Source: a virus
Taxonomy: Duplodnaviria; Heunggongvirae; Uroviricota; Caudoviricetes
Virus record (IMG/VR): IMGVR_UViG_2529292883_000007
Location: 1 to 10,506 of that record
Strand: one strand, 5' to 3'
Length of the DNA: 10,506 nucleotides
Shown: positions 1-10,506 of the stretch, piece after piece
Layout of the letters: each line of letters begins with the position of its first letter
Numbering within the stretch: position 1 is the stretch's first letter
Translations under genes and position numbers: made by a program
The notes under the pieces: generated by a model
What the model saw: the letters and a program-made list of their open reading frames with translations, nothing else
The model's database searches: none
What the model was told of the DNA's origin: nothing

Positions 1-411
1 TCAAAAAAAGTTTCCCTGATAAAACCCCAGTACACGCTGCACAACTTCGCTCTTCCGGCACTCGCTACAAATTATGTTCAATCTCCTGTCGTAGCGACGT
101 ATTTCTCCGTCAGGTAATGACCAGATAAGGTCCGGATCAACCACAGATGGTTTCTTCACCTTTGCCCTCGAGAGTTTTTTGCGGGCATTTTGCCAGTCCT
201 TACGAGCCTGTTCTGACGGGAATAACCCGTAGCCAGAGTTGTATACATCGCCACTGGCAACCAGCTCTCTGGCCAGAACGCTCATCAGATATCTTGTTGC
301 CCCGGTTTTAGCTTCCTGTTGTCGTAACGTCTCGCGCCCACTCTGGCATACGAGTTCAACAACCTGCCCTTTAATTTTTTCTCGCTCTTCTTGTGTAAAT
401 ACTTTTGCCAT
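1..411 (-). CDS. Hypothetical phage protein, 136 aa, last gene of the leftward early operon
   Basis: Complete ORF on the minus strand (ATG at 411-409, stop TGA at 3-1), 40 nt downstream of the replication gene and co-oriented. No family recognised from the sequence. Confidence 0.45.
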   Translation of the reverse strand: MAKVFTQEEREKIKGQVVELVCQSGRETLRQQEAKTGATRYLMSVLARELVASGDVYNSGYGLFPSEQARKDWQNARKKLSRAKVKKPSVVDPDLIWSLPDGEIRRYDRRLNIICSECRKSEVVQRVLGFYQGNFF

Positions 412-451
412 AAGTCCTCCTGAAAATTACCTCATGACCTGAAATAAACAC

Positions 452-1417
452 TCACCCCCTGAATCCCGGTGGAATTTCGGTATCCGGTTCAGAAACATGA
501 TTCACACAACGCTGCGTCGGACCACGTCCCAGACGAATCACCAGTTCATCCCATTTTTCGCGAAGCTTTGACGGACTCATGATGTTTTTTACCCAGAATG
601 GATCCCGCTGTACCCGACCAAACATTTCGCAAATTTGCCTGTGCGTTCTTCCATCCAGCATCCGCATTGTGCGCACGTCATTGGCCCACGCGGTCCAGTT
701 GGGTTCTTTCGGTCGCGCGATCTCGCCATCATCGCTGGCAGCCTGTTCGTAAAGGCTCACGATTCGTCCCCAGATCCACTGCGCACACACCAAATCTTCC
801 TGGCTGCCCCACTGGCGTTTTTTTGCACTGAACACAACCGCGTCAGGATGTCGGGTTAAAAAATCCTGTTCAGCCGTCTGCGGGTCCGGTTGCGAAGCTT
901 CCGGACGAGAAGTGTTTTTATTCTCTGTAGTAATCTCTGTTGTATTCTCTGTAAGATCATCGGGCCATTTTGACCCGATGACATTGGGTCGTCTTGAACC
1001 AATGGAGCGTGTCATTTTGGCCTCTTCCATCGTGTCATTTTGACCTGATGGAGCGGCGCATTTTGACCTGATGGATTCGCTCAATTTGCCACCATCTAAA
1101 AGCTCGCTCTCGTAATTAATCGTGTAAAAATTAGTCATGTCACGCTTTGATTTATTGAGTTTTTCGCAACGCAAAAGCCCCAGCGTTTTCAGACTTGCAA
1201 ATGCGCGTTTTAACGTTGATTCAGACCAGAACGGAAACTGTTCCAGCCATTGTTCCGTTGTGTTATAAATCCAGCGAACCCCGTCACATTCCATACCGGA
1301 ACCGGTATCTCTCAACCAGTAATGCAGCTGCTGCAACACGATGGCTTCGTTCAGACCAATTTTCATCGCCAGCTGCGTGTTTATAACCAGCGGGCGTTCA
1401 GCAAAAAGGAGCTTCAT
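452..1417 (-). CDS. Putative replication initiation protein (lambda O-like organisation)
   Basis: 321-aa ORF whose ATG (1417-1415) is preceded by a GGGGGAGGGG Shine-Dalgarno. The N-terminal part has a winged-helix-like pattern; the middle of the gene carries iteron-like direct repeats followed by an AT-rich stretch, as in lambda O/ori. It sits after Cro-like and YdaT-like genes as in lambdoid pR operons. Family assignment is from memory only. Confidence 0.6.
   Translation of the reverse strand: MKLLFAERPLVINTQLAMKIGLNEAIVLQQLHYWLRDTGSGMECDGVRWIYNTTEQWLEQFPFWSESTLKRAFASLKTLGLLRCEKLNKSKRDMTNFYTINYESELLDGGKLSESIRSKCAAPSGQNDTMEEAKMTRSIGSRRPNVIGSKWPDDLTENTTEITTENKNTSRPEASQPDPQTAEQDFLTRHPDAVVFSAKKRQWGSQEDLVCAQWIWGRIVSLYEQAASDDGEIARPKEPNWTAWANDVRTMRMLDGRTHRQICEMFGRVQRDPFWVKNIMSPSKLREKWDELVIRLGRGPTQRCVNHVSEPDTEIPPGFRG
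966..1075. repeat. Iteron-like direct repeats (putative origin of replication inside the O-like gene)
   Basis: Two perfect copies of CATTTTGACCTGATGGA at 1036-1052 and 1059-1075, near-copies at 966-982 and 1013-1029, and a degenerate copy around 982-1007, all with about 23-bp spacing. An AT-rich tract lies at 905-958 on the downstream side in the coding orientation; it also holds three 12-13-bp repeats (ATTCTCTGTA-type). Confidence 0.5.
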
Positions 1418-1438
1418 CCCCTCCCCCAGAACACGTTA

Positions 1439-1864
1439 TCAATGCACCACCACGGCATTTCCCGCCGGACCACCACGATTCATCTGATTGAAACCAGCAA
1501 TCACCACCGCGACAAGTTCATCAGCGTCTCGCACCAGTCGTTCATGCGCCTCCACCAGTTCCCGAAAATAAGCGGAACTGTGGCTGCGCATCCTGGCCAC
1601 CAGCGGAGGTGGCATTGCCTTTTCGATCGCTGGTAACAACGCCTGAATTTTTTTCACCGCATCAGGAGTATCTTTCTCCACCCAGCGGAAAATTTTCTGA
1701 GTATTGCGAGCTAGGGCTTCTGGGTGTGAATCGTCGTACAGTTCCGGAAACGTCATACCCAGCTCAAAATAAGCCTGGGTTATTTCAGCCGCCGGAACTT
1801 TTTCACCGTCCGGATACGCCCAGGCATTCATCGCCATGCGGATGTGTTCATGCTTGATTTTCAT
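1439..1864 (-). CDS. ydaT: YdaT-family protein (Rac prophage YdaT-like, CII-like position)
   Basis: 141-aa ORF starting MKIKHEHI..., which I recall as the YdaT N-terminus. Its ATG (1864-1862) overlaps the stop of the upstream Cro-like gene in an ATGA arrangement, implying translational coupling. Confidence 0.6.
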   Translation of the reverse strand: MKIKHEHIRMAMNAWAYPDGEKVPAAEITQAYFELGMTFPELYDDSHPEALARNTQKIFRWVEKDTPDAVKKIQALLPAIEKAMPPPLVARMRSHSSAYFRELVEAHERLVRDADELVAVVIAGFNQMNRGGPAGNAVVVH

Positions 1865-2121
1865 GAATCAACTCCCGCCACTTGCTGTGTGTTAGCCTGA
1901 AACTCAGCAGGCAAGCCGTCGGTTGGGTTGGGATAAATATCAGGGCGAATTTCATGCGGGGTAACTTCCCAGCTCATTAGCTGACATAACGGAATTACCT
2001 GCTTTGGGGGAACGCCAAAGCTAAACCATTGCCAAACAGTCTGTTGAGCGACCCCCATATAACGACCTATTTCAGCTTGAGAGAATTTCTGCCTAATTTT
2101 TTCGCGAGTGCTATCTATCAT
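1861..2121 (-). CDS. Cro/YdaS-like helix-turn-helix regulator
   Basis: 86-aa ORF with an HTH-like segment (SQAEIGRYMGVAQQTVWQW) and a GGAGG Shine-Dalgarno upstream of the ATG at 2121-2119. It is divergent from the repressor gene and first in the leftward operon. Confidence 0.65.
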   Translation of the reverse strand: MIDSTREKIRQKFSQAEIGRYMGVAQQTVWQWFSFGVPPKQVIPLCQLMSWEVTPHEIRPDIYPNPTDGLPAEFQANTQQVAGVDS

Positions 2122-2155
2122 TTTGCCCTCCTCTAAAAACTATAGGCAAAAGACT

Positions 2156-2194
2156 ACAATAAAAAACTGTGCACGATCAACAGTTTTTTATTGT
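2156..2194. promoter_or_regulatory. Operator O1: perfect inverted repeat with 15-bp arms and a 9-bp spacer, in the divergent promoter region
   Basis: ACAATAAAAAACTGT (2156-2170), spacer gcacgatca, ACAGTTTTTTATTGT (2180-2194); the arms are exact reverse complements. On the minus strand a TTGATC -35-like hexamer overlaps the palindrome and faces the Cro-like gene. Confidence 0.55.
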
Positions 2195-2230
2195 GATGCT
2201 TTTAACAGTATTTCCCTGTAAAATTGAACG

Positions 2231-2632
2231 ATGATGAACGCCTTAGAAGTATCTATGTACAGAATCAGCAAGCTTCTCCAAGAAACAGGATGGAGCCAGG
2301 CTGAGCTTGCTCGTAGAATTGGTGTGACACAACAAACTGTTCAACAATGGGTCAGCGGTAAAGCTACACCTAAAGCCTCAAGTTTGGATAAACTGGTTGA
2401 GGTTACAGGGCATCCATTGCATTGGTTTTTATTGCCTCCTGAAGAGGGTGAGCAAATCTTCACCCCTGATACGATGAAAATTGGTCCTCGCCAACGCGAA
2501 CTGCTCCAGGCTTTTAGTGCGTTTCCAGAAGAAGACCAAGAAAAAATGCTTCAGGAAATCAAAGACAAGAAAAAATCAATGGAAGAAACCATTGCTCGAT
2601 GGTTGGCGGCGCAAAAAATCCGCCGAGCGTGA
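2231..2632 (+). CDS. XRE-family HTH repressor (PaaR-like / DicA-analogous prophage repressor)
   Basis: 133-aa ORF with an N-terminal XRE HTH (SQAELARRIGVTQQTVQQWVSG). It is divergent from the Cro-like gene and lies directly upstream of the antitoxin and ParE genes, matching the paaR-paaA-parE three-gene layout as I remember it. Confidence 0.7.
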   Translation: MMNALEVSMYRISKLLQETGWSQAELARRIGVTQQTVQQWVSGKATPKASSLDKLVEVTGHPLHWFLLPPEEGEQIFTPDTMKIGPRQRELLQAFSAFPEEDQEKMLQEIKDKKKSMEETIARWLAAQKIRRA

Positions 2633-2657
2633 CCAGTGAACAAAGAGGAGTCATGTC

Positions 2658-2849
2658 ATGAGTACAGCCCTTTCTCCGATAGTTTCAGAATTCGAAACTA
2701 CCGAACAAGAAAACAGTTACAACGAATGGTTGCGCGCTAAAGTCGCGTCAAGCTTTGCAGATCATCGCCCCGCAATACCGCATGACGAGGTGATGGCTGA
2801 AATGGAAAATCTTATTGCTCAAATTGCTGCGACTAGCGGGAGTGTGTAA
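2658..2849 (+). CDS. PaaA-type small antitoxin (ParE-associated)
   Basis: 63-aa ORF with a GAGGAG Shine-Dalgarno 7 nt upstream. Its stop codon overlaps the start of the ParE reading frame (TAATG at 2847-2851). The sequence (SPIVSEFETTEQENSYNEWLRAKVA...) resembles PaaA-type antitoxins from memory. Confidence 0.6.
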   Translation: MSTALSPIVSEFETTEQENSYNEWLRAKVASSFADHRPAIPHDEVMAEMENLIAQIAATSGSV

Positions 2850-3138
2850 TGCTACCCATTTTATGGCTACCATCTGCTCGCGATGATTTGCGTCAGATCG
2901 TAGCCTATATTGCCAAGGAAAATGTTCCACAGCAGCTCGTAGACTAAAAATACGTATTGAAACGTCTGTTTTAGCCCTCTCAGAGCATCCATATCTATAT
3001 CCGCCAAGTGATAGAGTATCCGGTTTGCGGGAAATTGTAGCTCACCCTAATTATATCGTTTTGTACCGAGTAGCAGCTTCAAGCATTGAAATTGTAAATA
3101 TTGTGCATACCCGCAGACAGTTTCCCTTCCCTGCCTGA
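2849..3138 (+). pseudogene. parE: ParE-family toxin gene disrupted by a frameshift
   Basis: The frame from ATG 2849 encodes a ParE-like N-terminus (MLPILWLPSARDDLRQIVAYIAKENVP...) and stops at TAA 2945-2947. A different frame, open from 2887 to the TGA at 3136-3138, encodes a ParE-like C-terminus (...AARRLKIRIETSVLALSEHPYLYPPSDRVSGLREIVAHPNYIVLYRVAASSIEIVNIVHTRRQFP). The switch point is near 2927-2935. Confidence 0.6.
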
Positions 3139-3156
3139 ACCGAACGATTTTCACAC

Positions 3157-3180
3157 TCCCTCATACGAGGGATTTTTTTT
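3157..3180 (+). terminator. Intrinsic terminator after the repressor-TA operon
   Basis: Stem TCCCTC (3157-3162) / GAGGGA (3167-3172) with loop ATAC, followed by 8 T (3173-3180). Confidence 0.6.
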
Positions 3181-3191
3181 GCCAAAAAACA

Positions 3192-3235
3192 ACAATTAAA
3201 AACTGTTGACACCAAACAGTTTTTAATTGTAGATT
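3192..3235 (+). promoter_or_regulatory. Operator O2 overlapping a rightward early promoter (pL analogue)
   Basis: ACAATTAAAAACTGT (3192-3206), spacer tgacaccaa, ACAGTTTTTAATTGT (3216-3230); perfect 15-bp arms, one base different from O1. A consensus -35 TTGACA (3204-3209) straddles the left arm and spacer; a -10 candidate TAGATT lies at 3230-3235 but the spacing is long, so the exact -10 is uncertain. Confidence 0.55.
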
Positions 3236-3414
3236 GTTTTCACCAGCCCACCCCGTCCCACAGAATGCAGGGCAAAACTTCGAGTTACCAGGCAGTGGTC
3301 AGGGGTTAAGTAGCCAGCCCGAGGCGTATGAACATGACGGCAGGGATCAAATTTAATAACTATGCAGCAGGTTTTTGTTCCGCTACCCCGGCGTTAAGGG
3401 GAAATGAGGTCAAC

Positions 3415-3570
3415 ATGGAAACTATCGATCTTGGCAACAACGAATCTCTGGTGTGCGGTGTGTTTCCCAACCAGGACGGAACGTTCACCGCGATGACGTA
3501 TACAAAAAGCAAAACGTTTAAAACCGAATCTGGCGCGCGTCGTTGGTTGGTAAGACATTCAGGTGAATAA
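3415..3570 (+). CDS. ydfA: YdfA-like small protein (first gene of a dicB-operon-like transcript)
   Basis: 51-aa ORF (METIDLGNNESLV...) with a GAGGT Shine-Dalgarno 5 nt upstream. Its position downstream of the repressor-controlled promoter and upstream of DicF matches the Qin ydfA-ydfB-...-dicF order. An in-frame upstream start at 3328 or 3334 would give a 78-80-aa product and cannot be excluded. Confidence 0.5.
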   Translation: METIDLGNNESLVCGVFPNQDGTFTAMTYTKSKTFKTESGARRWLVRHSGE

Positions 3571-3571
3571 A

Positions 3572-3718
3572 ATGAACGAAACAGAATTAAAACACGTTAT
3601 CGCTCTGCTTCTGGAGGATGCAAAACGCCTCCAGCAACTGGAACCAAATGCAGGCACTGAAGCCCGCATCTGGCTGGCATTGTACGCTATTGAGTCAGGT
3701 CGTGATGATGAAGGTTAA
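3572..3718 (+). CDS. ydfB: YdfB-like small protein
   Basis: 48-aa ORF (MNETELKHVIALLLEDAKRLQQLEPNAGTEARIWLALYAIESGRDDEG), absent from the ORF track because it is under 60 aa. AGGTGA Shine-Dalgarno 5 nt upstream; the ATG is 1 nt after the ydfA-like stop. Confidence 0.45.
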   Translation: MNETELKHVIALLLEDAKRLQQLEPNAGTEARIWLALYAIESGRDDEG

Positions 3719-3999
3719 GCATCATCTAAGTTTTTTACATAGCGCCCATTAGATTCGGTAACAAGAACTCCGGGATTTTTCTTAACTTTTGAGGCCACTG
3801 ATTCAGCAAGGTTAGCAACAGATTCTTTGTCTTCATTCTTGCTTGAATATGTATATTCGGCATTAGGAAGTCGGTAGGTGTTCCCTGAAGAGGTTGTAAT
3901 CGTTCTGGAGAATCCCTTTGCTTCCATTCGTTCATGAAGCTTATCGTAATCAGCGGAACTGGAATCGCGAAGTTCGATCCTGACTGTAAATTTTGCCAT
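3715..3999 (-). CDS. Hypothetical 94-aa protein, convergent to the early operon
   Basis: ATG at 3999-3997 preceded by a strong GGAGGATAAA Shine-Dalgarno (the longer track ORF starts inside this SD, so the 94-aa form is preferred). Its stop overlaps the ydfB-like stop by 4 bp (TTAA at 3715-3718). Non-repetitive, protein-like composition; family not recognised. Confidence 0.6.
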   Translation of the reverse strand: MAKFTVRIELRDSSSADYDKLHERMEAKGFSRTITTSSGNTYRLPNAEYTYSSKNEDKESVANLAESVASKVKKNPGVLVTESNGRYVKNLDDA

Positions 4000-4335
4000 T
4001 TTATCCTCCATTAAGGGCTGAATTAAAAATGGAGACCAACACGCTGCTACGTGTGGTCGTGCGCCGGACACGGATAAGAATCCGGCACTGACAGTTTACT
4101 GAAAGGATATTTCCCTGAAAAGTCAGGGCATAACACGAAAGCGTACGGCGAAGGCCTTCACCTATGAGGTTTGTCGTTAAATTTCTTCGACCGTGCGCTT
4201 CCGGTTGTGGCACTCCGCGAAATGGCGCGGTGGTAAGTATGGCGGGGTTATTCCTTCCCCCGTTGAGGACACCGGGTTGTCAGGTTGACCATACACTTAA
4301 GTGACAACCCCGCTGCAACGCCCTCTGTTATCAAT

Positions 4336-4393
4336 TTTCTGGTGACGTTTGGCGGTATCAGTTTTACTCCGTGACTGCTCTGCCGCCCTTTTT
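4336..4393 (+). ncRNA. dicF: DicF small RNA (ftsZ-targeting prophage sRNA) with its 3' terminator hairpin
   Basis: TTTCTGGTGACGTTTGGCGGTATCAGTTTTACTCCGTGACTGCTCTGCCGCCC followed by TTTTT matches my recollection of the DicF sequence. It ends in a GGCGG...CCGCC hairpin plus a U-run, and lies downstream of ydfA/ydfB-like genes as in Qin. Confidence 0.7.
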
Positions 4394-4801
4394 AAAGTGA
4401 ATTTTGTGATGTGGTGAATGCGGCTAAGCGCACGCGGAACAGTTAAAAAAAATATTGTTATGGGTGGATTCTCTGTATCCGGCGTTAATTGTTAACTGGT
4501 TAACGTCACCTGGAGGCACCAGGCACCACATCAACAAAGTTTATTTAATTATGCGCGAATTAACCGTTATTCGTGCAGGGGATTTCTACACCTGAAATCC
4601 ACAGTTCTTTAATAATATGGATCGGGCTGTCACGTAAACCACAATTCGGGGTGCCGCCGAATGCCCTGATATATCCGCGGAACCGGAACACAGGGTCGGG
4701 ATGTGATTTTTTGAGCAAACCAAACTGGTGGCTTCCGACACTTGCGAGAAGTCCAAATTTAGACTAAATTATGACTAAATTTAACGACAAGGCCGTACTT
4801 C

Positions 4802-5035
4802 ATGAAAATAGAAACTATCAGCTACATCAAGAAAAACGCAGCCTCACTGGACCTGGCTGAACCAATTCTTGTCACGCAGAATGGTGTTCCTGCATACGTA
4901 ATTGAATCCTATGAGCAGCAACAGGAACGCGAGAATGCTATTGCGTTACTGAAACTTCTCACTATTTCAGAAAGTGACAGGTCTGAAGGCCGCGTGTTTT
5001 CAAAAGAACAGTTGCTGGATAGCTTTAACAAGTAA
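4802..5035 (+). CDS. Phd/YefM-family antitoxin
   Basis: 77-aa ORF (MKIETISYIKKNAASLDLAEPILVTQNGVPAYVIESYEQQQERENAIALLKLL...) with the Phd/YefM pattern. The toxin ORF follows 8 nt after its stop. Confidence 0.7.
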   Translation: MKIETISYIKKNAASLDLAEPILVTQNGVPAYVIESYEQQQERENAIALLKLLTISESDRSEGRVFSKEQLLDSFNK

Positions 5036-5043
5036 GGTTGACG

Positions 5044-5364
5044 ATGCAGATTGAATACACGCTTACCGCCAGAACAAGCCTTGAGCAAATTGCCGACCAT
5101 CTCCGGAGTAACGACATTGACCCACTCCCTGTAATAGAAGAAATTCTTGAACGATTTGAAACAAGAGTTACGGCATTCCCGTCCGGATGCCAGTTATGCC
5201 CGGAGTTGCTCAAACTTGGCGTGGCGAAATATAGAGAATGCAACACACCAGAAGGTTACAGAGTGCTGTACTCTGTAGAAGGGGATGTTATCACTGCACA
5301 CGCGGTTCTTTCCCAACGTCAGGATATTAAACAGTTACTGTTCAGGCGACTGATTAGAGCTTAG
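5044..5364 (+). CDS. RelE/ParE-superfamily toxin (putative)
   Basis: 106-aa ORF from ATG 5044 (the track begins at an in-frame TTG at 5038), with AAGG 6 nt upstream. ParE/RelE-like pattern (conserved N-terminal helix, and YRVLYSVEGDVITAHAVL near the C-terminus). Lies directly downstream of the Phd/YefM antitoxin. Confidence 0.55.
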   Translation: MQIEYTLTARTSLEQIADHLRSNDIDPLPVIEEILERFETRVTAFPSGCQLCPELLKLGVAKYRECNTPEGYRVLYSVEGDVITAHAVLSQRQDIKQLLFRRLIRA

Positions 5365-5382
5365 CAATCACAAATTCAGTAC

Positions 5383-5411
5383 CCCCTGTTCCCCCAAGTT
5401 CAGGGGTTTTT
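5383..5411 (+). terminator. Intrinsic terminator after the TA pair
   Basis: Stem CCCCTG (5383-5388) / CAGGGG (5401-5406) with a 12-nt loop, followed by TTTTTGCTTTT. Confidence 0.5.
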
Positions 5412-5426
5412 GCTTTTCTGAGGGTG

Positions 5427-5455
5427 TTGACGCTGGGAACTGTCAGGGGTATATT
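5427..5455 (+). promoter_or_regulatory. Near-consensus sigma70-type promoter upstream of rha
   Basis: -35 TTGACG (5427-5432), 17-nt spacer, -10 TATATT (5450-5455); predicted transcription start around 5462. Confidence 0.5.
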
Positions 5456-5510
5456 TTGTCCGCACCTCATAAAACGGGTGCCGGGCGTGGAAACCCGATG
5501 TTCACTAACG

Positions 5511-5543
5511 CGCATAACCGCGCTCAGGCGGTTTTTTTATGCG
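5511..5543 (+). terminator. Terminator/attenuator hairpin within the rha leader
   Basis: Inner stem CCGC (5518-5521) / GCGG (5528-5531) with loop GCTCAG, followed by 7 T (5532-5538). An outer stem CGCATAA (5511-5517) / TTATGCG (5537-5543) could alternatively sequester part of the U-run. It sits about 55-80 nt downstream of the predicted start. Confidence 0.45.
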
Positions 5544-5707
5544 TAATGCACAGCCACATTCAGATTATGGTGGGACGTGCAGGGCAGCCGCAAGGCTGGC
5601 CGGGTTCGTTAGTGACCGGTATTTCCACCCCTGTACGTCTCACCACCCTTATGGTCGTGGAAAACCTTGGTGGTGAGTTAATCAAATTCACTAACGAGGC
5701 TGCTATC

Positions 5708-6262
5708 ATGGCTACTATCCCTACCCTTTCTCACCCTGACGTAACCATCAAAAATGGTCGCGCTGTCACTACGTCTGTTGCGGTTGCAGAGTTCTTCCGC
5801 AAAATGCACAAGGACGTTTTGCGCAAAATTGAAACGCTAGAATGCTCTGAAGATTTTAACGAGCGCAATTTTACGCCCGTTACCTACACCGACGCCAAAG
5901 GCGAAAAACGACCAATGTACCAAATCACCAAAAACGGCTTCGTTTTCCTGGTGATGGGGTTCACCGGCAAAAAAGCCGCAGCTTTCAAGGAAGCCTACAT
6001 CGCTGAATTCGATCGCATGGAGGCAGAGTTGTACCAGCTTAATACCACTACCACAGACAAAATAATTCCTGGTGATGGTCGCACTCTCGTTGTTCACTTC
6101 GACGAACGCGGCAATATCAAATTCACCGAAACCGTTCCTGACGGCGCTCTCGTCTGTACTCTGGATACTTTCCGCTTTTATCTGGAGAAGCAGGGGTGGA
6201 CTCTTGTAAACAGGAGCGCAATTAAAAATATGACCGTCGAGCAGTTGCTGAGTATTAAATAG
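5708..6262 (+). CDS. rha: Rha-family phage regulatory protein
   Basis: 184-aa ORF from ATG 5708 with a GAGG Shine-Dalgarno 8 nt upstream. The N-terminus (KNGRAVTTSVAVAEFFRKMHKDVLRKIETL...YQITKNGFVFLVMGFTGKKAAAFKEAYIAEFDRME) matches the Rha domain pattern. The track's longer 268-aa ORF starts at a TTG inside the promoter -10 and is not preferred. Confidence 0.7.
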   Translation: MATIPTLSHPDVTIKNGRAVTTSVAVAEFFRKMHKDVLRKIETLECSEDFNERNFTPVTYTDAKGEKRPMYQITKNGFVFLVMGFTGKKAAAFKEAYIAEFDRMEAELYQLNTTTTDKIIPGDGRTLVVHFDERGNIKFTETVPDGALVCTLDTFRFYLEKQGWTLVNRSAIKNMTVEQLLSIK

Positions 6263-6308
6263 TTTTCTGGAATTTTCTTAATGCGACAAATTTATTAAGG
6301 AGATAATT

Positions 6309-6530
6309 ATGATTGCTCATCACTTCGGAACTGATGATATTCCTCGTCAGTGCGTGACTCCCGGTGATTATGTTATTCATAAAGGAAGAACATATATTGC
6401 TTCGGTAAACAATATTAAAAAACACCGGCTCTATATTCGTGATTTTTCCACACAACACTGTATTAATGAAACCATGATTAAAGTCTTCCTTGATCGTGAT
6501 GGTTTACCTGTAAAGGCGGAGTCGTGGTGA
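6309..6530 (+). CDS. Small protein, possibly KilR-like (Rac cell-division inhibitor family)
   Basis: 73-aa ORF with a strong AAGGAG Shine-Dalgarno 6 nt upstream, in a locally AT-rich segment. The KilR assignment rests on its length, its position next to the recE-like gene and a tentative recollection of the KilR sequence. Confidence 0.5.
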
Positions 6531-6647
6531 GCTGTAATAAAATAACTACCCCAATACGACATTCAGTTTAATAAATACATCAGATTCGATTCTTATATGC
6601 CAGCAATGGCAGTGATTTGTTCACCCCTAAATCTGTAATGAGGTTTA

Positions 6648-9086
6648 TTGATGAGCACGAATAAAGAACTGTTTGCGCTATATTGCGAAGCTAAAAATGA
6701 CAAGGTCAGAAAGCGTCTCGGTATTAAAGGTGGCTTTTTCTGGATCGAAGCCAAAAAACTTTCCGTTGCAGTTTCCCGCTGTATTGCCGCTATGGACGAT
6801 GCTGGCTACGACGAAGATGATTTCAAAAAAACAGTTCGCGTCCATTTGCCTGTTGTAAATGACCTGCCACCTGAAGGCGTATTTGATACTGATTTCTGTA
6901 ACCGTTACGAAAAAGGTGGAGAAGATGGCATCACAATGATGCCGGTACCGTCCAGCAACAGCGATGAAAACAGTAACGCCGCTAATACTAACGTCAACGG
7001 CGAAGACATGACTGAGATTGAGGAGAATATGCTTCTGCCGGTTTCAGGTCAGCTTCTGCCTGTTAGATGGCTGGCACAGCACGGCAGCGAAAAACCTGTC
7101 ACGCATGTTTCACGGGATGAACTGCGGGCATTACATAACGCACAGGAAGAAAAACTTCCCGCCGTTACCGCTCTGGCCATCTCAAATAAAGCAGTGCAAC
7201 TCGAACCGCTGGAGATTCGGGATTTGTACAAACTGGTGCGGGACACTGACAAAGTTTTTCCCGCCCCCGTAAATTCAGACCTGGGACTGATGACTTCCTT
7301 CATCGAAGCATACCTGGACGCTGACTACACCAATCGCGGTCTGCTTACAAAAGAGTGGATGAAAGGAAATCATGTTTCGCGAATCAGCCGCACACCATCC
7401 GGCGCTAACGCTGGCGGCGGTATTCTTACCGATCGCGGCGAAGGTTTTGTACACGATGATGCATCACTGGCGCGCGACGTAGCCACTGGCGTGCTGGCCC
7501 GTTCAATGGACGTGGACATTTATAACCTTCATCCGGCACACGCTAAACGCGTCGAGGAAATTATCGCTGAAAATAAACCGCCCTTTTCTGTTTTCTTCAG
7601 CAAATTCATCACCATGCCGGGCCACAAGGATTTCTCCCGTGCCATCGTGGTTGCCTCCGTGAAAGAAGCACCAGTTGGTATAGAGGCTATGCCCCACCGT
7701 GTCACCGAATACCTGAATAAGGTGCTGACTGAAACCGATCATGCCAACCCTGATCCGGAAATCGTGGATATTGCCTGCGGTCGCTCCTCTGCCCCGATGC
7801 CGCAGCGTGTAACGGAAAAAGAAAAACATGATGAAGAAAAACCGCAACCATCTGGCGCAATGGCAGATGAACAGGCAACGGCTGAAACAGTGGAACCGGA
7901 TGCAACTGAACATCATCCGGACACGCAGCCGGTGGATGCTCAGCCACAGGTGAATTCTGTTGATGCGAAATATCAGAAACTGCGGGCAGAACTCCATGAA
8001 GCCAGGAAAAACATTTCGCCTAAAAATCCTGTCGACGCAAACAAATTACTGGCCGCCTCTCGCGGAGAATTTGTTGAAGGGATTAGTGACCCGAATGATC
8101 CGAAATGGGTTAAGGGGCACCAGACTCGCGAGTCTTCGAACCAGAATCAACCAGAAGTGGAACAAACCAGGTCAGAATCGGGACAAAATAGCCAGGATGC
8201 ACACCAAAATGAACCAAAAACGATACATCCGGAGCCAGCAGCGCAACATGCACAGAAAAATCCCTGTAATGTTTGTGGGGAAACTGGCGGGGGCACATGC
8301 CCTGACTGTGCCTCAGTAATGGGTGACGCAACTTACCATGAGACATTCTGCGAGGAAGATTCAGATGAATCTCAGGAAAAAGCTCCGGAGGAGATGGAAA
8401 ACCCTGAACATCCGCATCCGGAAAATACTGACAGCAATCAGCATAACAATAGCGGTGATAAAACTGACAGGACGACAAATTCCTTAATTAATATGTACGG
8501 TTATAAGAAAAGAACATCCACCAGCAGAATGTGTCACCATCTGATGATCGACCTTGAAACAATGGGAAAAAATCCTGATTCCCCGATTATCTCAATAGGT
8601 GCAATATTTTTCGATCCGCAAACCGGAGAGATGGGACCAGAATTTAATAAAACCATCGATCTGGAAACTGCTGGCGGAGTCATTGATCGGGACGCGATCA
8701 AGTGGTGGCTGAAGCAATCACGCGAAGCGCAATCTGCCATTCTGACCGATGAAATCCCGTTAGATGATGCACTGCTGCAATTGCGGGAATTTATCGCCGA
8801 AAACTCCGGTGAATTGTTTGTTCAGGTCTGGGGAAATGGAGCCAACTTCGACAACGTGATTTTGCGCCGTTCATATGAACGGCAGGGTATCCCCTGCCCG
8901 TGGCGCTACTACAACGATCGCGATGTACGCACAATCATTGAACTGGGAAAATCCATAGACTTCGATGCCAGGACGCCTATTCAATTCGAAGGCATACGCC
9001 ACAATGCGCTGGATGATGCCCGTCACCAGGCGAAATACGTTTCAGCAATCTGGCAAAAACTGATCCCGAATCAGTCTGATTTTTAA
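6648..9086 (+). CDS. Large prophage exonuclease: RecE-like N-terminal/central region fused to a C-terminal DEDDh (DnaQ/RNase T-like) 3'-5' exonuclease domain
   Basis: 812-aa ORF with GAGG 8 nt upstream. The C-terminal domain has the three DEDDh motifs: Exo I MIDLETMG, Exo [14 protein letters not shown], Exo [15 protein letters not shown] CxxC-x7-CxxC motif ([15 protein letters not shown]) and an acidic, Pro/Gln/Glu-rich low-complexity segment lie between the N-terminal region and the nuclease domain. It occupies the exo/recE position upstream of xis-int. Confidence 0.75.
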
Positions 9087-9149
9087 TGTTCAACCCCAGT
9101 CGTCGCCCCCAGCTATAGTGGCGGCGACCATGATTAGCGAACGATACTC

Positions 9150-9398
9150 ATGGCAAGACTTATTCTGCTCACTGAGTGGGCAAAAGAGGAATTCAGCGAT
9201 CCGGTCCCTACTCCGGGCACGTTAAGTAAATACGCTAAAGCCGGAATGATATTTCCTCTCCCCAAAAAAGTTGGAAGACACTGGCGAGTGGATCCGCGAG
9301 CTCGCTTTGTCGGAATGGTAAACAAGCCGGAGGTGATCGCCACAGATCATCCTGCTTTAAAGAGGATACTGGAAGATGGCACGCCCGCGAAAATATAA
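9150..9398 (+). CDS. xis: Excisionase (Xis-like)
   Basis: 82-aa ORF immediately upstream of int, with its 3' end overlapping the int start by 23 nt as in lambda xis/int. The sequence (LTEWAKEEF...MIFPLPKKVGRHWRVDP) resembles excisionase-family proteins. Confidence 0.65.
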   Translation: MARLILLTEWAKEEFSDPVPTPGTLSKYAKAGMIFPLPKKVGRHWRVDPRARFVGMVNKPEVIATDHPALKRILEDGTPAKI

Positions 9399-10506
9399 AA
9401 CCGCTGTTCCGGGATTATCTCCGTATTTTGACAAAAGAAATAACAAAGTTTACTGGCGTTACAGGCATCCCATCACAGGTAAAAATCATGGACTCGGCAG
9501 TATTGACCAGAAACTGGCGGAAACCATTGCAGCAGAAGCGAACAGCCGTCTTGCCAGACAACAAATGGAGCAAATGCTCAGTCTGCAGGAGAAAATTATT
9601 AGTGATACCGGCGGCGCATCAACCGTTTCCATTTTTCTGAATAATTACAGAAAAATTCAACAGGAAAGATATGAGAACGGAGAGATCAAACTCAGCACGC
9701 TGAAGCAAAAAGCGGCTCCTCTCAGGGTGTTTGATGAACGTTTTGGAGCCAGGCCGCTAGATGCCATAACCGTAAAAGATGTGGTATCAGTGCTGGAAGA
9801 ATACAAGGCAAAGGGACATAACAGAATGGGACAAATTTTCAGGAAGGTCTTGATCGATGTTTTCCGGGAGGCTCAACAAACGGGTGATGTCCCGCCAGGC
9901 TTTAACCCGGCTGAATCGGCAAAAAAACCGCAAGTGCGGATATCAAGACAGCGACTGACTTTTGATGAGTGGATGATGATTTATAACGCAGCGGAAAAGG
10001 ATGGTTACTTTTTACAGCGCGGCATGCTGCTGGCTCTGATGACGGGCCAGCGTCTTTCGGATATTTGCAAAATGCAGTTTTCGGATATCCGGGATGGTTA
10101 CCTTCATGTCGAACAGCAAAAAACAGGAGCCCGGATAGCCATTCCTCTGGCTCTGCGTTGCGACAAATTAAATCGTACCCTGGGTGACGTGGTGTCATCC
10201 TGTCGTGATTACATCCTTAGTCCGTGGTTATTGCACCATCATCACGCTAAGGGGATGGGTAAGCGCGGCGGGATGGTTAAACCAGCAACGTTAACAGTCG
10301 CATTTAAAAAAGCCCGGGATTCTGTGGATTACAACTGGCGTGCTAATGGCACGCCACCCTCTTTCCATGAGCAAAGATCTTTATCAGAACGATTGTTCAG
10401 AGAACAGGGAATTGATACCAAAATTTTGCTGGGTCATTCGAATCAAAAAATGACCGATATTTACAACGATGCACGCGGTAAGGAGTGGAAAAAACTGGTC
10501 ATTTGA
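9376..10506 (+). CDS. int: Lambda-family tyrosine integrase
   Basis: 376-aa ORF with clear similarity to lambda Int as I recall it: RLTFDEWMMIYNAAEKDGYF / MTGQRLSDICKMQFSDIRDGYLHVEQQKTGARIAIPLAL and the C-terminal PPSFHEQRSLSERLF...LLGHSNQKMTDIYNDARGKEWKKL, including the catalytic R...HxxR...Y arrangement. The stop is at the window edge, so the att site should lie just downstream of the window. Confidence 0.9.
   Translation: MARPRKYKTAVPGLSPYFDKRNNKVYWRYRHPITGKNHGLGSIDQKLAETIAAEANSRLARQQMEQMLSLQEKIISDTGGASTVSIFLNNYRKIQQERYENGEIKLSTLKQKAAPLRVFDERFGARPLDAITVKDVVSVLEEYKAKGHNRMGQIFRKVLIDVFREAQQTGDVPPGFNPAESAKKPQVRISRQRLTFDEWMMIYNAAEKDGYFLQRGMLLALMTGQRLSDICKMQFSDIRDGYLHVEQQKTGARIAIPLALRCDKLNRTLGDVVSSCRDYILSPWLLHHHHAKGMGKRGGMVKPATLTVAFKKARDSVDYNWRANGTPPSFHEQRSLSERLFREQGIDTKILLGHSNQKMTDIYNDARGKEWKKLVI

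Follow-up and report, generated by a model that had tools for sequence, protein, structure and literature searches.

In Escherichia coli K-12, the small RNA (sRNA) DicF of the Qin prophage is cut from a transcript that starts at dicBp, with cleavage by RNase III setting the 5′ terminus of a 190-nt species and cleavage by RNase E that of the 53-nt DicF; Ragunathan et al., confirming Faubladier 1990, found no extra promoter inside the dicBF operon (bioRxiv 10.1101/2023.04.14.536235). A second prophage sRNA, STnc100, is related to PasD (bioRxiv 10.64898/2026.05.13.724894). In the leaders of rrn operons the order of signals is boxB-boxA-boxC, with boxA reading UGCUCUUUA and followed by the spacer ACAAUUUA (PMC2724277), and the gamma-proteobacterial BoxA consensus is GYTCTTTAANA, in which the C at position 4 is critical (Baniulyte et al., bioRxiv 10.1101/091223). 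Precedents for BoxA outside rrn operons are CRISPR arrays, suhB, and a ParE-like toxin. Here we describe the interval 4072–4801 of a 10,506-nt stretch of DNA (the window: positions 1 to 10,506 of the IMG/VR virus record IMGVR_UViG_2529292883_000007, Caudoviricetes), which is 100% identical to GCA_000241995.1 contig JH590550.1 and in which DicF is present without dicB. The interval very probably belongs to the early-left operon of a lambdoid prophage, a Qin/Rac-type mosaic located beside ompW, that has kept DicF and exchanged dicB. This is real yet ordinary prophage mosaicism, and the sole feature that may be new is a leader in which an rrn-type BoxA is joined to a structured RNA core.

The DicF-like sRNA recognized in a preliminary description of this DNA is borne out by a covariance-model search. 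The Rfam model RF00039 matches 4337–4388 on the plus strand at 76.7 bits, against a gathering score of 48, and does so over its full length (model positions 1–52 of 52). K-12 dicF receives the same bit score, and the aligned sequences are identical, hence the same ftsZ-pairing residues are present. The structure of the Rho-independent terminator is fully matched, and TTTTT follows at 4389–4393. The 9-bp stem that had been pointed out further upstream is exact (GGGTTGTCA at 4274–4282 with TGACAACCC at 4302–4310) and is contained in the predicted fold of the 190-nt precursor region (4190–4395; −74.4 kcal/mol, z = −2.6), in which residues 4229–4248 pair with the 3′ half of DicF (4367–4387). Because the stem is invariant across K-12, VL40, A34, and E24377A, covariation speaks neither for nor against it; its label as a processing structure is reasonable and brings nothing new. 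By analogy, DicF in the window's strain would be processed as it is in K-12.

The likeness to the Qin dicBF operon of K-12 extends well beyond DicF itself. In both, DicF is preceded on its own strand by a DicA-like repressor and a ydfA-like gene, and the precursor region and the 157-nt spacer that follows DicF (4389–4545) are shared, with K-12 homology running over 4058–4545 at 91.5% identity and ending 16–17 nt short of the position of the dicB ATG. Unlike Qin, the window has neither dicB nor ydfD; a minus-strand GhoS/YmfI-like gene replaces ydfB and ydfC, and the sequence downstream consists of a toxin-antitoxin cassette, an Rha/Ash antirepressor module, and kilR. Searches of the 10.5-kb window by tblastn, with DicB of K-12, a divergent DicB, and YdfD as queries, gave no match (best E = 0.2), so that the absence of dicB noted earlier holds across the whole window, and no dicB lies ~175 nt downstream of dicF, where Qin-type operons have it. 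With the Rac kilR region, the window shares a full-length KilR and, behind it, a RecE-like exonuclease. In loci of the Rac type this same spacer stands directly before kil, in a class that has Kil and no DicF, whereas in the window two cassettes lie between the spacer and kilR and DicF occupies the slot 5′ of the spacer. The match to the KilR family PRK11354 (138.5 bits against a cut-off of 92) covers residues 1–73 of 73. The presence of this full-length KilR at 6309–6530, on the same strand as DicF, qualifies the suggestion that the protein division inhibitor had been swapped out: DicF is here paired with KilR, and not with DicB, as the protein inhibitor of FtsZ.

A recombination boundary between Qin-type DNA and other cargo does exist, as had been suggested, but it falls between positions 4545 and 4546 rather than at the end of the sRNA. 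Because Qin homology runs to 4545, DicF is followed by 157 nt of the usual DicF–dicB spacer. What had been taken for some 400 bp of anonymous junction resolves into two defined non-coding modules, the STnc100-like spacer and the BoxA-containing leader of the toxin-antitoxin cassette. We surveyed 105 sampled IMG/VR prophage loci bearing the conserved 5′ part of the spacer. Where DicF lies upstream, the spacer is followed by dicB in 75 loci, kil in 4, and rha/ash in 2; where the slot lacks DicF, the corresponding counts are 8, 6, and 6, with other genes in 4. A single point of divergence, immediately after ...CATC(A)ACAAAGTTCATT, is common to the dicB, kil, rha/ash, and toxin-antitoxin classes, and in the first three of these classes a ribosome-binding site of their own comes directly past it. 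Of the 81 DicF-bearing prophage copies sampled, ~7% thus have kil or rha/ash as the partner of DicF in place of dicB, and pairing with the toxin-antitoxin cassette is rarer still. DicF with its spacer is found in 4032 of 5426 complete E. coli genomes and a contiguous dicF–dicB stretch in 3838, whereas at least 80% of the toxin-antitoxin leader is present in only 7.

The same Phd protein is encoded, without a single difference, in nine further independent contigs that are 98–99% identical to the window over 4058–10506 where they reach. DicF lies ~413 nt 5′ of Phd in 9/9 of them, and the DicF-to-toxin-antitoxin arrangement therefore occurs in at least 10 independent contigs. To the left of this shared arm, three different immunity-region types are found among the nine. 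Based on these contigs and their three immunity regions, the arrangement is a circulating configuration and no local accident. DicF and its protein partner are thus separable modules, with all versions joined at one fixed point, and the presence of DicF does not imply the presence of DicB, which bears on how division-inhibiting functions are assembled in prophages.

The DicF slot is itself exchangeable, as A34 and E24377A illustrate. In A34 (L001 3903–3977), a tRNA-like sequence fills the slot exactly and retains the 3′ half of the DicF terminator; this sequence scores 44 bits with the Rfam tRNA model and is annotated as 'tRNA-OTHER' in the genome, and ARAGORN calls no tRNA there. In E24377A (L002 3615–4139), the slot is filled by a minus-strand DUF1883 gene, and the spacer is followed by a truncated dicB, then an Rha gene, and then a full dicB. 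DicF also varies among prophages with the toxin-antitoxin cassette, since the DicF-like sequences of ETEC1746 (L007 4787–4842) and VL40 (L003 ~3210–3260) are diverged or internally deleted, the ETEC1746 copy reaching 37 bits, which is under the gathering score.

The DicF-distal spacer, which is present in K-12 Qin and in all cargo classes, is a closed structured RNA domain. A closing helix (4395–4416/4524–4546) encloses hairpins at 4481–4488/4500–4507 and 4509–4513/4519–4523, and the fold of 4389–4600 reaches −76.7 kcal/mol compared with −49.5 ± 4.0 for shuffled sequences (z = −6.8). Over 30 distinct arm pairs, 93.7% of the cells of the ~21-bp closing helix are paired and 4 pairs show a compensatory change; when the 3′ partners are slid by 1–3 columns, only 31–54% are paired. 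The first of the two palindromes noted earlier exists, as CGTTAA at 4483–4488 and TTAACG at 4500–4505, and extends to the 8-bp stem 4481–4488/4500–4507, but it is unchanged in K-12 Qin and is therefore no marker of the junction. Rfam STnc100 (RF02076) aligns to 4379–4576 at 46.0 bits (E = 1.2e-8), just under its gathering score of 47, and other copies of the spacer score 34–39 bits. The consensus closing helix and internal hairpins of STnc100 and PasD are matched in the spacer, including the compensatory exchange of CCGGG/CCCGG for CCTGG/CCAGG; unlike STnc100, the spacer has no alignment to the 3′ terminator hairpin of the model (model positions ~176–198) and in most copies is followed at once by the ribosome-binding site of a gene. 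The long closing duplex suggests a site for RNase III, and we propose that the spacer may be a portable RNase III processing domain placed between DicF and whichever cassette comes next. The middle of the spacer (window 4440–4470, with equivalents in L001, L079, L092, and L094) is hypervariable. Several variants carry a hairpin with covarying arms there, such as CCGTAAAG/CTTTTACGG or AGTAAAG/CTTTTTACT; in the window and K-12 this stretch is short and forms no hairpin.

The remainder of the interval, 4546–4801, is the leader of the Phd/ParE cassette and holds the second palindrome, a BoxA, and a conserved structured core. The second palindrome, GGATTTC/GAAATCC, is present at 4580–4600, one base from the 4581–4601 first given. 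The BoxA just downstream of it is the single consensus match in the window when both strands are scanned, with 0.07 matches per window expected by chance. From ~4606 to 4707, the leader shares 77% identity with an intergenic block that occurs, unannotated, in ~190 E. coli chromosomes. This block lies within the yersiniabactin-island integrative conjugative element, 43 nt 5′ of a 77-aa open reading frame (ORF). Behind this ORF come virB1, virB2, virB3/4, and other genes over ~15 kb, all on one strand, which together form a type IV secretion operon. An exact-pattern scan of one genome per species recovered 56 loci across Enterobacterales (L008–L063), nearly all in the same position at the head of the operon, in genera that include Pectobacterium, Brenneria, Rahnella, Serratia, Klebsiella, and Yersinia; a looser scan of metagenomes recovered 87 loci and added 44 variants. 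A perfect consensus BoxA is found 31–33 nt upstream of the core in every one of the 87 unique leader variants (149 copies), and BoxA formed no part of either search pattern used to collect them. The element starts with (T/C)G(C/T)TCTTTAA(N)A, and the exact rrnG 14-mer TGCTCTTTAACAAT occurs in twelve variants.

A covariance model of the family (R1) scores 104 bits in the window and, in E. coli, 125 bits in the element of the yersiniabactin island; its search of the rest of the window and of 17 other loci gave no second copy of the leader. RNAalifold predicts 27 pairs with 99.7% of cells paired and with compensatory changes in helices 4 and 5. In helix 4, the integrative elements have AUUCAG/CUGAAU, the window has AUUCGG/CCGAAU, and locus L207 has AUCCGG/CCGGAU; at pair 99–129 of helix 5, 29 sequences have UA, 13 have CG, and 9 have UG. 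Of the two strands, only the plus strand accommodates the G-U intermediates. Because the core by itself is not unusually stable (z = +0.7 on the plus strand, −1.0 on the minus strand), it is covariation only that argues for the structure. An Rfam search of the leader gave no match at E ≤ 5, and full-text literature searches turned up no paper with the core sequence or with BoxA in conjugative elements. The copy at L207, a metagenome locus (~7908–8015, plus strand), is the most divergent, with two further compensatory pairs in helix 4. It comes directly after a CI-type repressor gene (HTH_3 and Peptidase_S24 domains), with the Cro and CII genes diverging, which is the PL/nutL position.

How the leader compares with described systems can be stated for several of them. 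Like the BoxA/Nus signals of rrn operons, the lambda nut sites, CRISPR leaders, suhB, and CKO_00699, it has a perfect BoxA with C4 and stands at the head of long operons, and one of these published cases, C. koseri CKO_00699, also concerns a toxin-antitoxin system of the ParE type. As in rrn leaders, a hairpin is found just 5′ of BoxA in the window, and by analogy with the boxB-boxA-boxC order this hairpin may correspond to boxB. A hairpin upstream of BoxA is the rrn order and not the lambda order, and the conserved ~90-nt structured core behind BoxA is without counterpart in rrn and nut sites. Neither the window nor L207 showed an arginine-rich ORF of the N type. The put RNA of HK022 resembles the leader in function only, as a cis-acting structured early-operon leader RNA independent of a phage protein; homology was rejected after R1 found nothing in the HK022 genome at E ≤ 10. 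An origin of transfer was likewise considered and excluded, the oriT of this family being located upstream of mobB (PMC2262945).

Other accounts of the interval explain the missing dicB or the spacer differently. If dicB had been deleted or had decayed in a degenerating cryptic prophage, the 400 bp would be leftover debris, and the window does hold one decayed gene, a frameshifted ParE2-like toxin (2849–3138). We regard this as scarcely credible: tblastn detects no remnant of dicB, the junction is the same clean point as for the intact kil and rha/ash cassettes, the ORFs of the inserted cassette are intact, the leader is conserved and has kept its compensatory base-pair changes, and the arrangement is 98–100% conserved in at least 10 contigs. 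That the interval encodes an unannotated small protein standing in for DicB is also very improbable. Thirteen ORFs of 20–64 aa overlap 4300–4850, and those within the interval include ORFs of 25–64 aa, among which the 25-aa ORF at 4418–4495 is in frame in the first five diverged copies. This candidate was rejected, because about half of 61 spacer variants, including the nearest relative of the window (L065), show a frame change or an early stop and sequence conservation extends beyond its stop codon. The four largest ORFs (46–64 aa, 4455–4767, either strand) have no Pfam match and the 64-aa ORF no NCBIfam match either, and similarity to DicB is lacking. An independent sRNA gene of the STnc100/PasD family at 4394–4545, in place of a 5′ untranslated or processing domain, has more in its favor. 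STnc100 and PasD are expressed prophage sRNAs, the match is near threshold (46.0 against 47, E = 1e-8), the fold is very stable, and the closing helix and hairpins agree with the family consensus. It nonetheless seems rather unlikely, given the unmatched 3′ terminator hairpin, the ribosome-binding site directly behind the domain in the dicB, kil, and rha/ash classes, and the lack of a promoter-like site between the DicF terminator and the domain.

For the leader, we prefer Nus-factor-dependent protection from Rho for transcripts that enter a long co-directional operon of a mobile element, and the main alternative is repression. Under the preferred reading, transcripts that read through the DicF terminator would cross the closed spacer domain, whose closing helix of ~21 bp is probably a substrate of RNase III, and would then reach the hairpin and BoxA (4580–4614). 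BoxA would recruit NusB/NusE and other Nus factors, and RNA polymerase would most likely be Rho-resistant over ~465 nt of untranslated RNA and at least 6 kb of co-directional genes downstream. We tentatively suggest that the 108-nt element at 4602–4709 represents an undescribed family of mobile-element operon leaders, in which an rrn-type BoxA fused to a ~90-nt core recruits Nus factors against Rho. With the same reserve, the operons covered could be those for type IV secretion in Enterobacterales integrative elements, an early-left operon of a prophage, and the toxin-antitoxin/antirepressor/kil arm described here. Several points weigh against this proposal. The BoxA of the window taken alone is modestly significant, as 12/200 shuffles reach one match, and it explains 11 nt of the leader and not the conserved ~90-nt core. 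Helices other than 4 and 5 are invariant or weakly supported, and in some variants helix 2 loses its outermost pairs. Complexes formed at rrn-type BoxA counter Rho-dependent termination only (PMC2724277), and two intrinsic-terminator-like hairpins lie downstream, past parE and past isrK. No shared sigma-70 promoter was identified upstream of the leader in the integrative-element copies, and both read-through of the DicF terminator and binding of Nus factors at the leader BoxA are steps that we infer. Repression would instead have the BoxA leader lower phd-parE expression through bound Nus factors, by analogy with the BoxA- and NusB-dependent repression published for the ParE-like toxin CKO_00699 of Citrobacter koseri and also for suhB. 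The BoxA leader accompanies this toxin-antitoxin cassette in every cassette locus examined and is absent from E24377A-type prophages, which have no cassette. We nevertheless consider repression unlikely here. BoxA lies 188 nt 5′ of the phd ATG, whereas in the published cases it is within 50 nt; a plausible toxin-antitoxin promoter (4742–4770) is downstream of BoxA; and the same leader heads type IV secretion operons without toxin-antitoxin genes, where blocking of a ribosome-binding site is a less natural explanation. If protection from Rho is correct, it would be the Nus factors of the host that license expression of the conjugation machinery in widespread integrative elements, yersiniabactin-spreading ones among them, and control by BoxA would extend past rRNA operons, CRISPR arrays, and suhB.

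Table 1. Features of the DicF-to-kilR arm, in window coordinates.
Feature	Position	Strand	Basis or remark
Upstream part of DicF precursor, including 9-bp stem	4195–4336	+	Fold; 91.5% identity to K-12 Qin
DicF sRNA with terminator hairpin and T-run	4337–4393	+	Rfam RF00039; identity to K-12
DicF-distal spacer, closed structured RNA domain, STnc100-like	4394–4545	+	Rfam near-match, fold, covariation
Module junction (end of Qin-type homology, start of toxin-antitoxin cassette)	4545–4546		blastn against K-12, alignment, class comparison
7-bp hairpin GGATTTC-N7-GAAATCC in boxB-like position	4580–4600	+	3 nt upstream of BoxA
Conserved leader element, BoxA and ~90-nt structured core	4602–4709	+	Covariance model R1, RNAalifold
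BoxA GTTCTTTAATA	4604–4614	+	Perfect match to GYTCTTTAANA, critical C at position 4
Putative promoter/operator TTGCGA-N17-TAAATT	4742–4792	+	Read from the sequence, inferred
Phd/YefM antitoxin	4802–5035	+	Pfam PF02604, 33.2 bits (cut-off 29.8)
ParE/RelE-family toxin	5038–5364	+	Pfam PF05016, 33.7 bits (cut-off 23)
Intrinsic-terminator-like hairpin CCCCTG...CAGGGG with T-run, closes cassette	5383–5419	+	Read from the sequence
Promoter-like site (5427–5455), isrK (5462–5538), C4 antisense RNA (5563–5650)	5427–5650	+	Head of Rha/Ash antirepressor module
kilR, Rac-type protein inhibitor of FtsZ	6309–6530	+	NCBIfam PRK11354; Pfam KilR on gene calls

Downstream of the spacer, the arm is a stack of cassettes (Table 1): Phd/ParE with its 256-nt leader and terminator-like hairpin, then isrK-C4-Rha/Ash, and then kilR onward. 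Behind kilR lie a gene for a RecE-like exonuclease, with domains of the Exonuc_VIII and Rv2179c-like types, an excisionase-like gene, and the integrase gene, and ompW adjoins. Antitoxin and toxin are separated by 2–8 nt, the toxin start being placed at 5044 in the gene calls of related contigs, and both exceed their Pfam thresholds, as expected of a type II toxin-antitoxin pair. The hairpin that closes the cassette has a 12-nt loop, which is above the limit of the scan tool. A sigma-70 promoter scan of the plus strand over 3900–5426 returned none, and the putative promoter of the cassette is weak, at 8 of 12 and under the scan threshold. It is accompanied by direct repeats GACTAAATT at 4762–4770 and 4773–4781, spaced 11 nt apart, and by an AAGG ribosome-binding site before phd (4789–4792); homology to a toxin-antitoxin locus of a Yersinia ruckeri plasmid starts at ~4738. 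A promoter match on the minus strand (4495–4468) is at chance level and was discarded. In VL40 (L003 4421–4510) and ETEC1746 (L007 6006–6095), sRNA-Xcc1 (RF02221) and a truncated Rha gene take the place of isrK and C4 behind the same cassette.

In the second cassette, the Rha/Ash antirepressor ORF comprises 268 aa and runs to 6262. Both isrK and C4 sit inside its 5′ part (window 5456–5740), and the Pfam Phage_ASH match (residues 3–94) overlaps their DNA; because of this overlap, the start of the protein and the meaning of its 'Ash' domain are uncertain.

Some further observations concern the leader copies in integrative elements and the genes upstream of DicF. Examples of the former are L005 2997–3104, L006 2999–3106, and L068 21484–21591 (minus strand), and the leader-bearing elements of E. 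coli and Klebsiella are those of the yersiniabactin island. The leader is found 41–46 nt 5′ of a conserved ORF of 73–77 aa (MRKPxYHVFVTQESQPD...GKLVLLEPR), which opens the VirB-type secretion operon and has no Pfam match. The ORF behind the L207 leader is 86 aa long and not arginine-rich. In the window, the GhoS/YmfI-like gene (3715–3999, minus strand) has a strong ribosome-binding site and lies between ydfA and DicF on the opposite strand; no GhoT-like partner is evident, and transcripts from a dicBp-equivalent promoter must traverse this gene in antisense before reaching DicF. A second toxin-antitoxin locus occupies 2658–3138. Its PaaA2/RelB-like antitoxin (2658–2849) is intact, and its ParE2-like toxin is frameshifted near 2925, with an intact version present in a related contig (L071).

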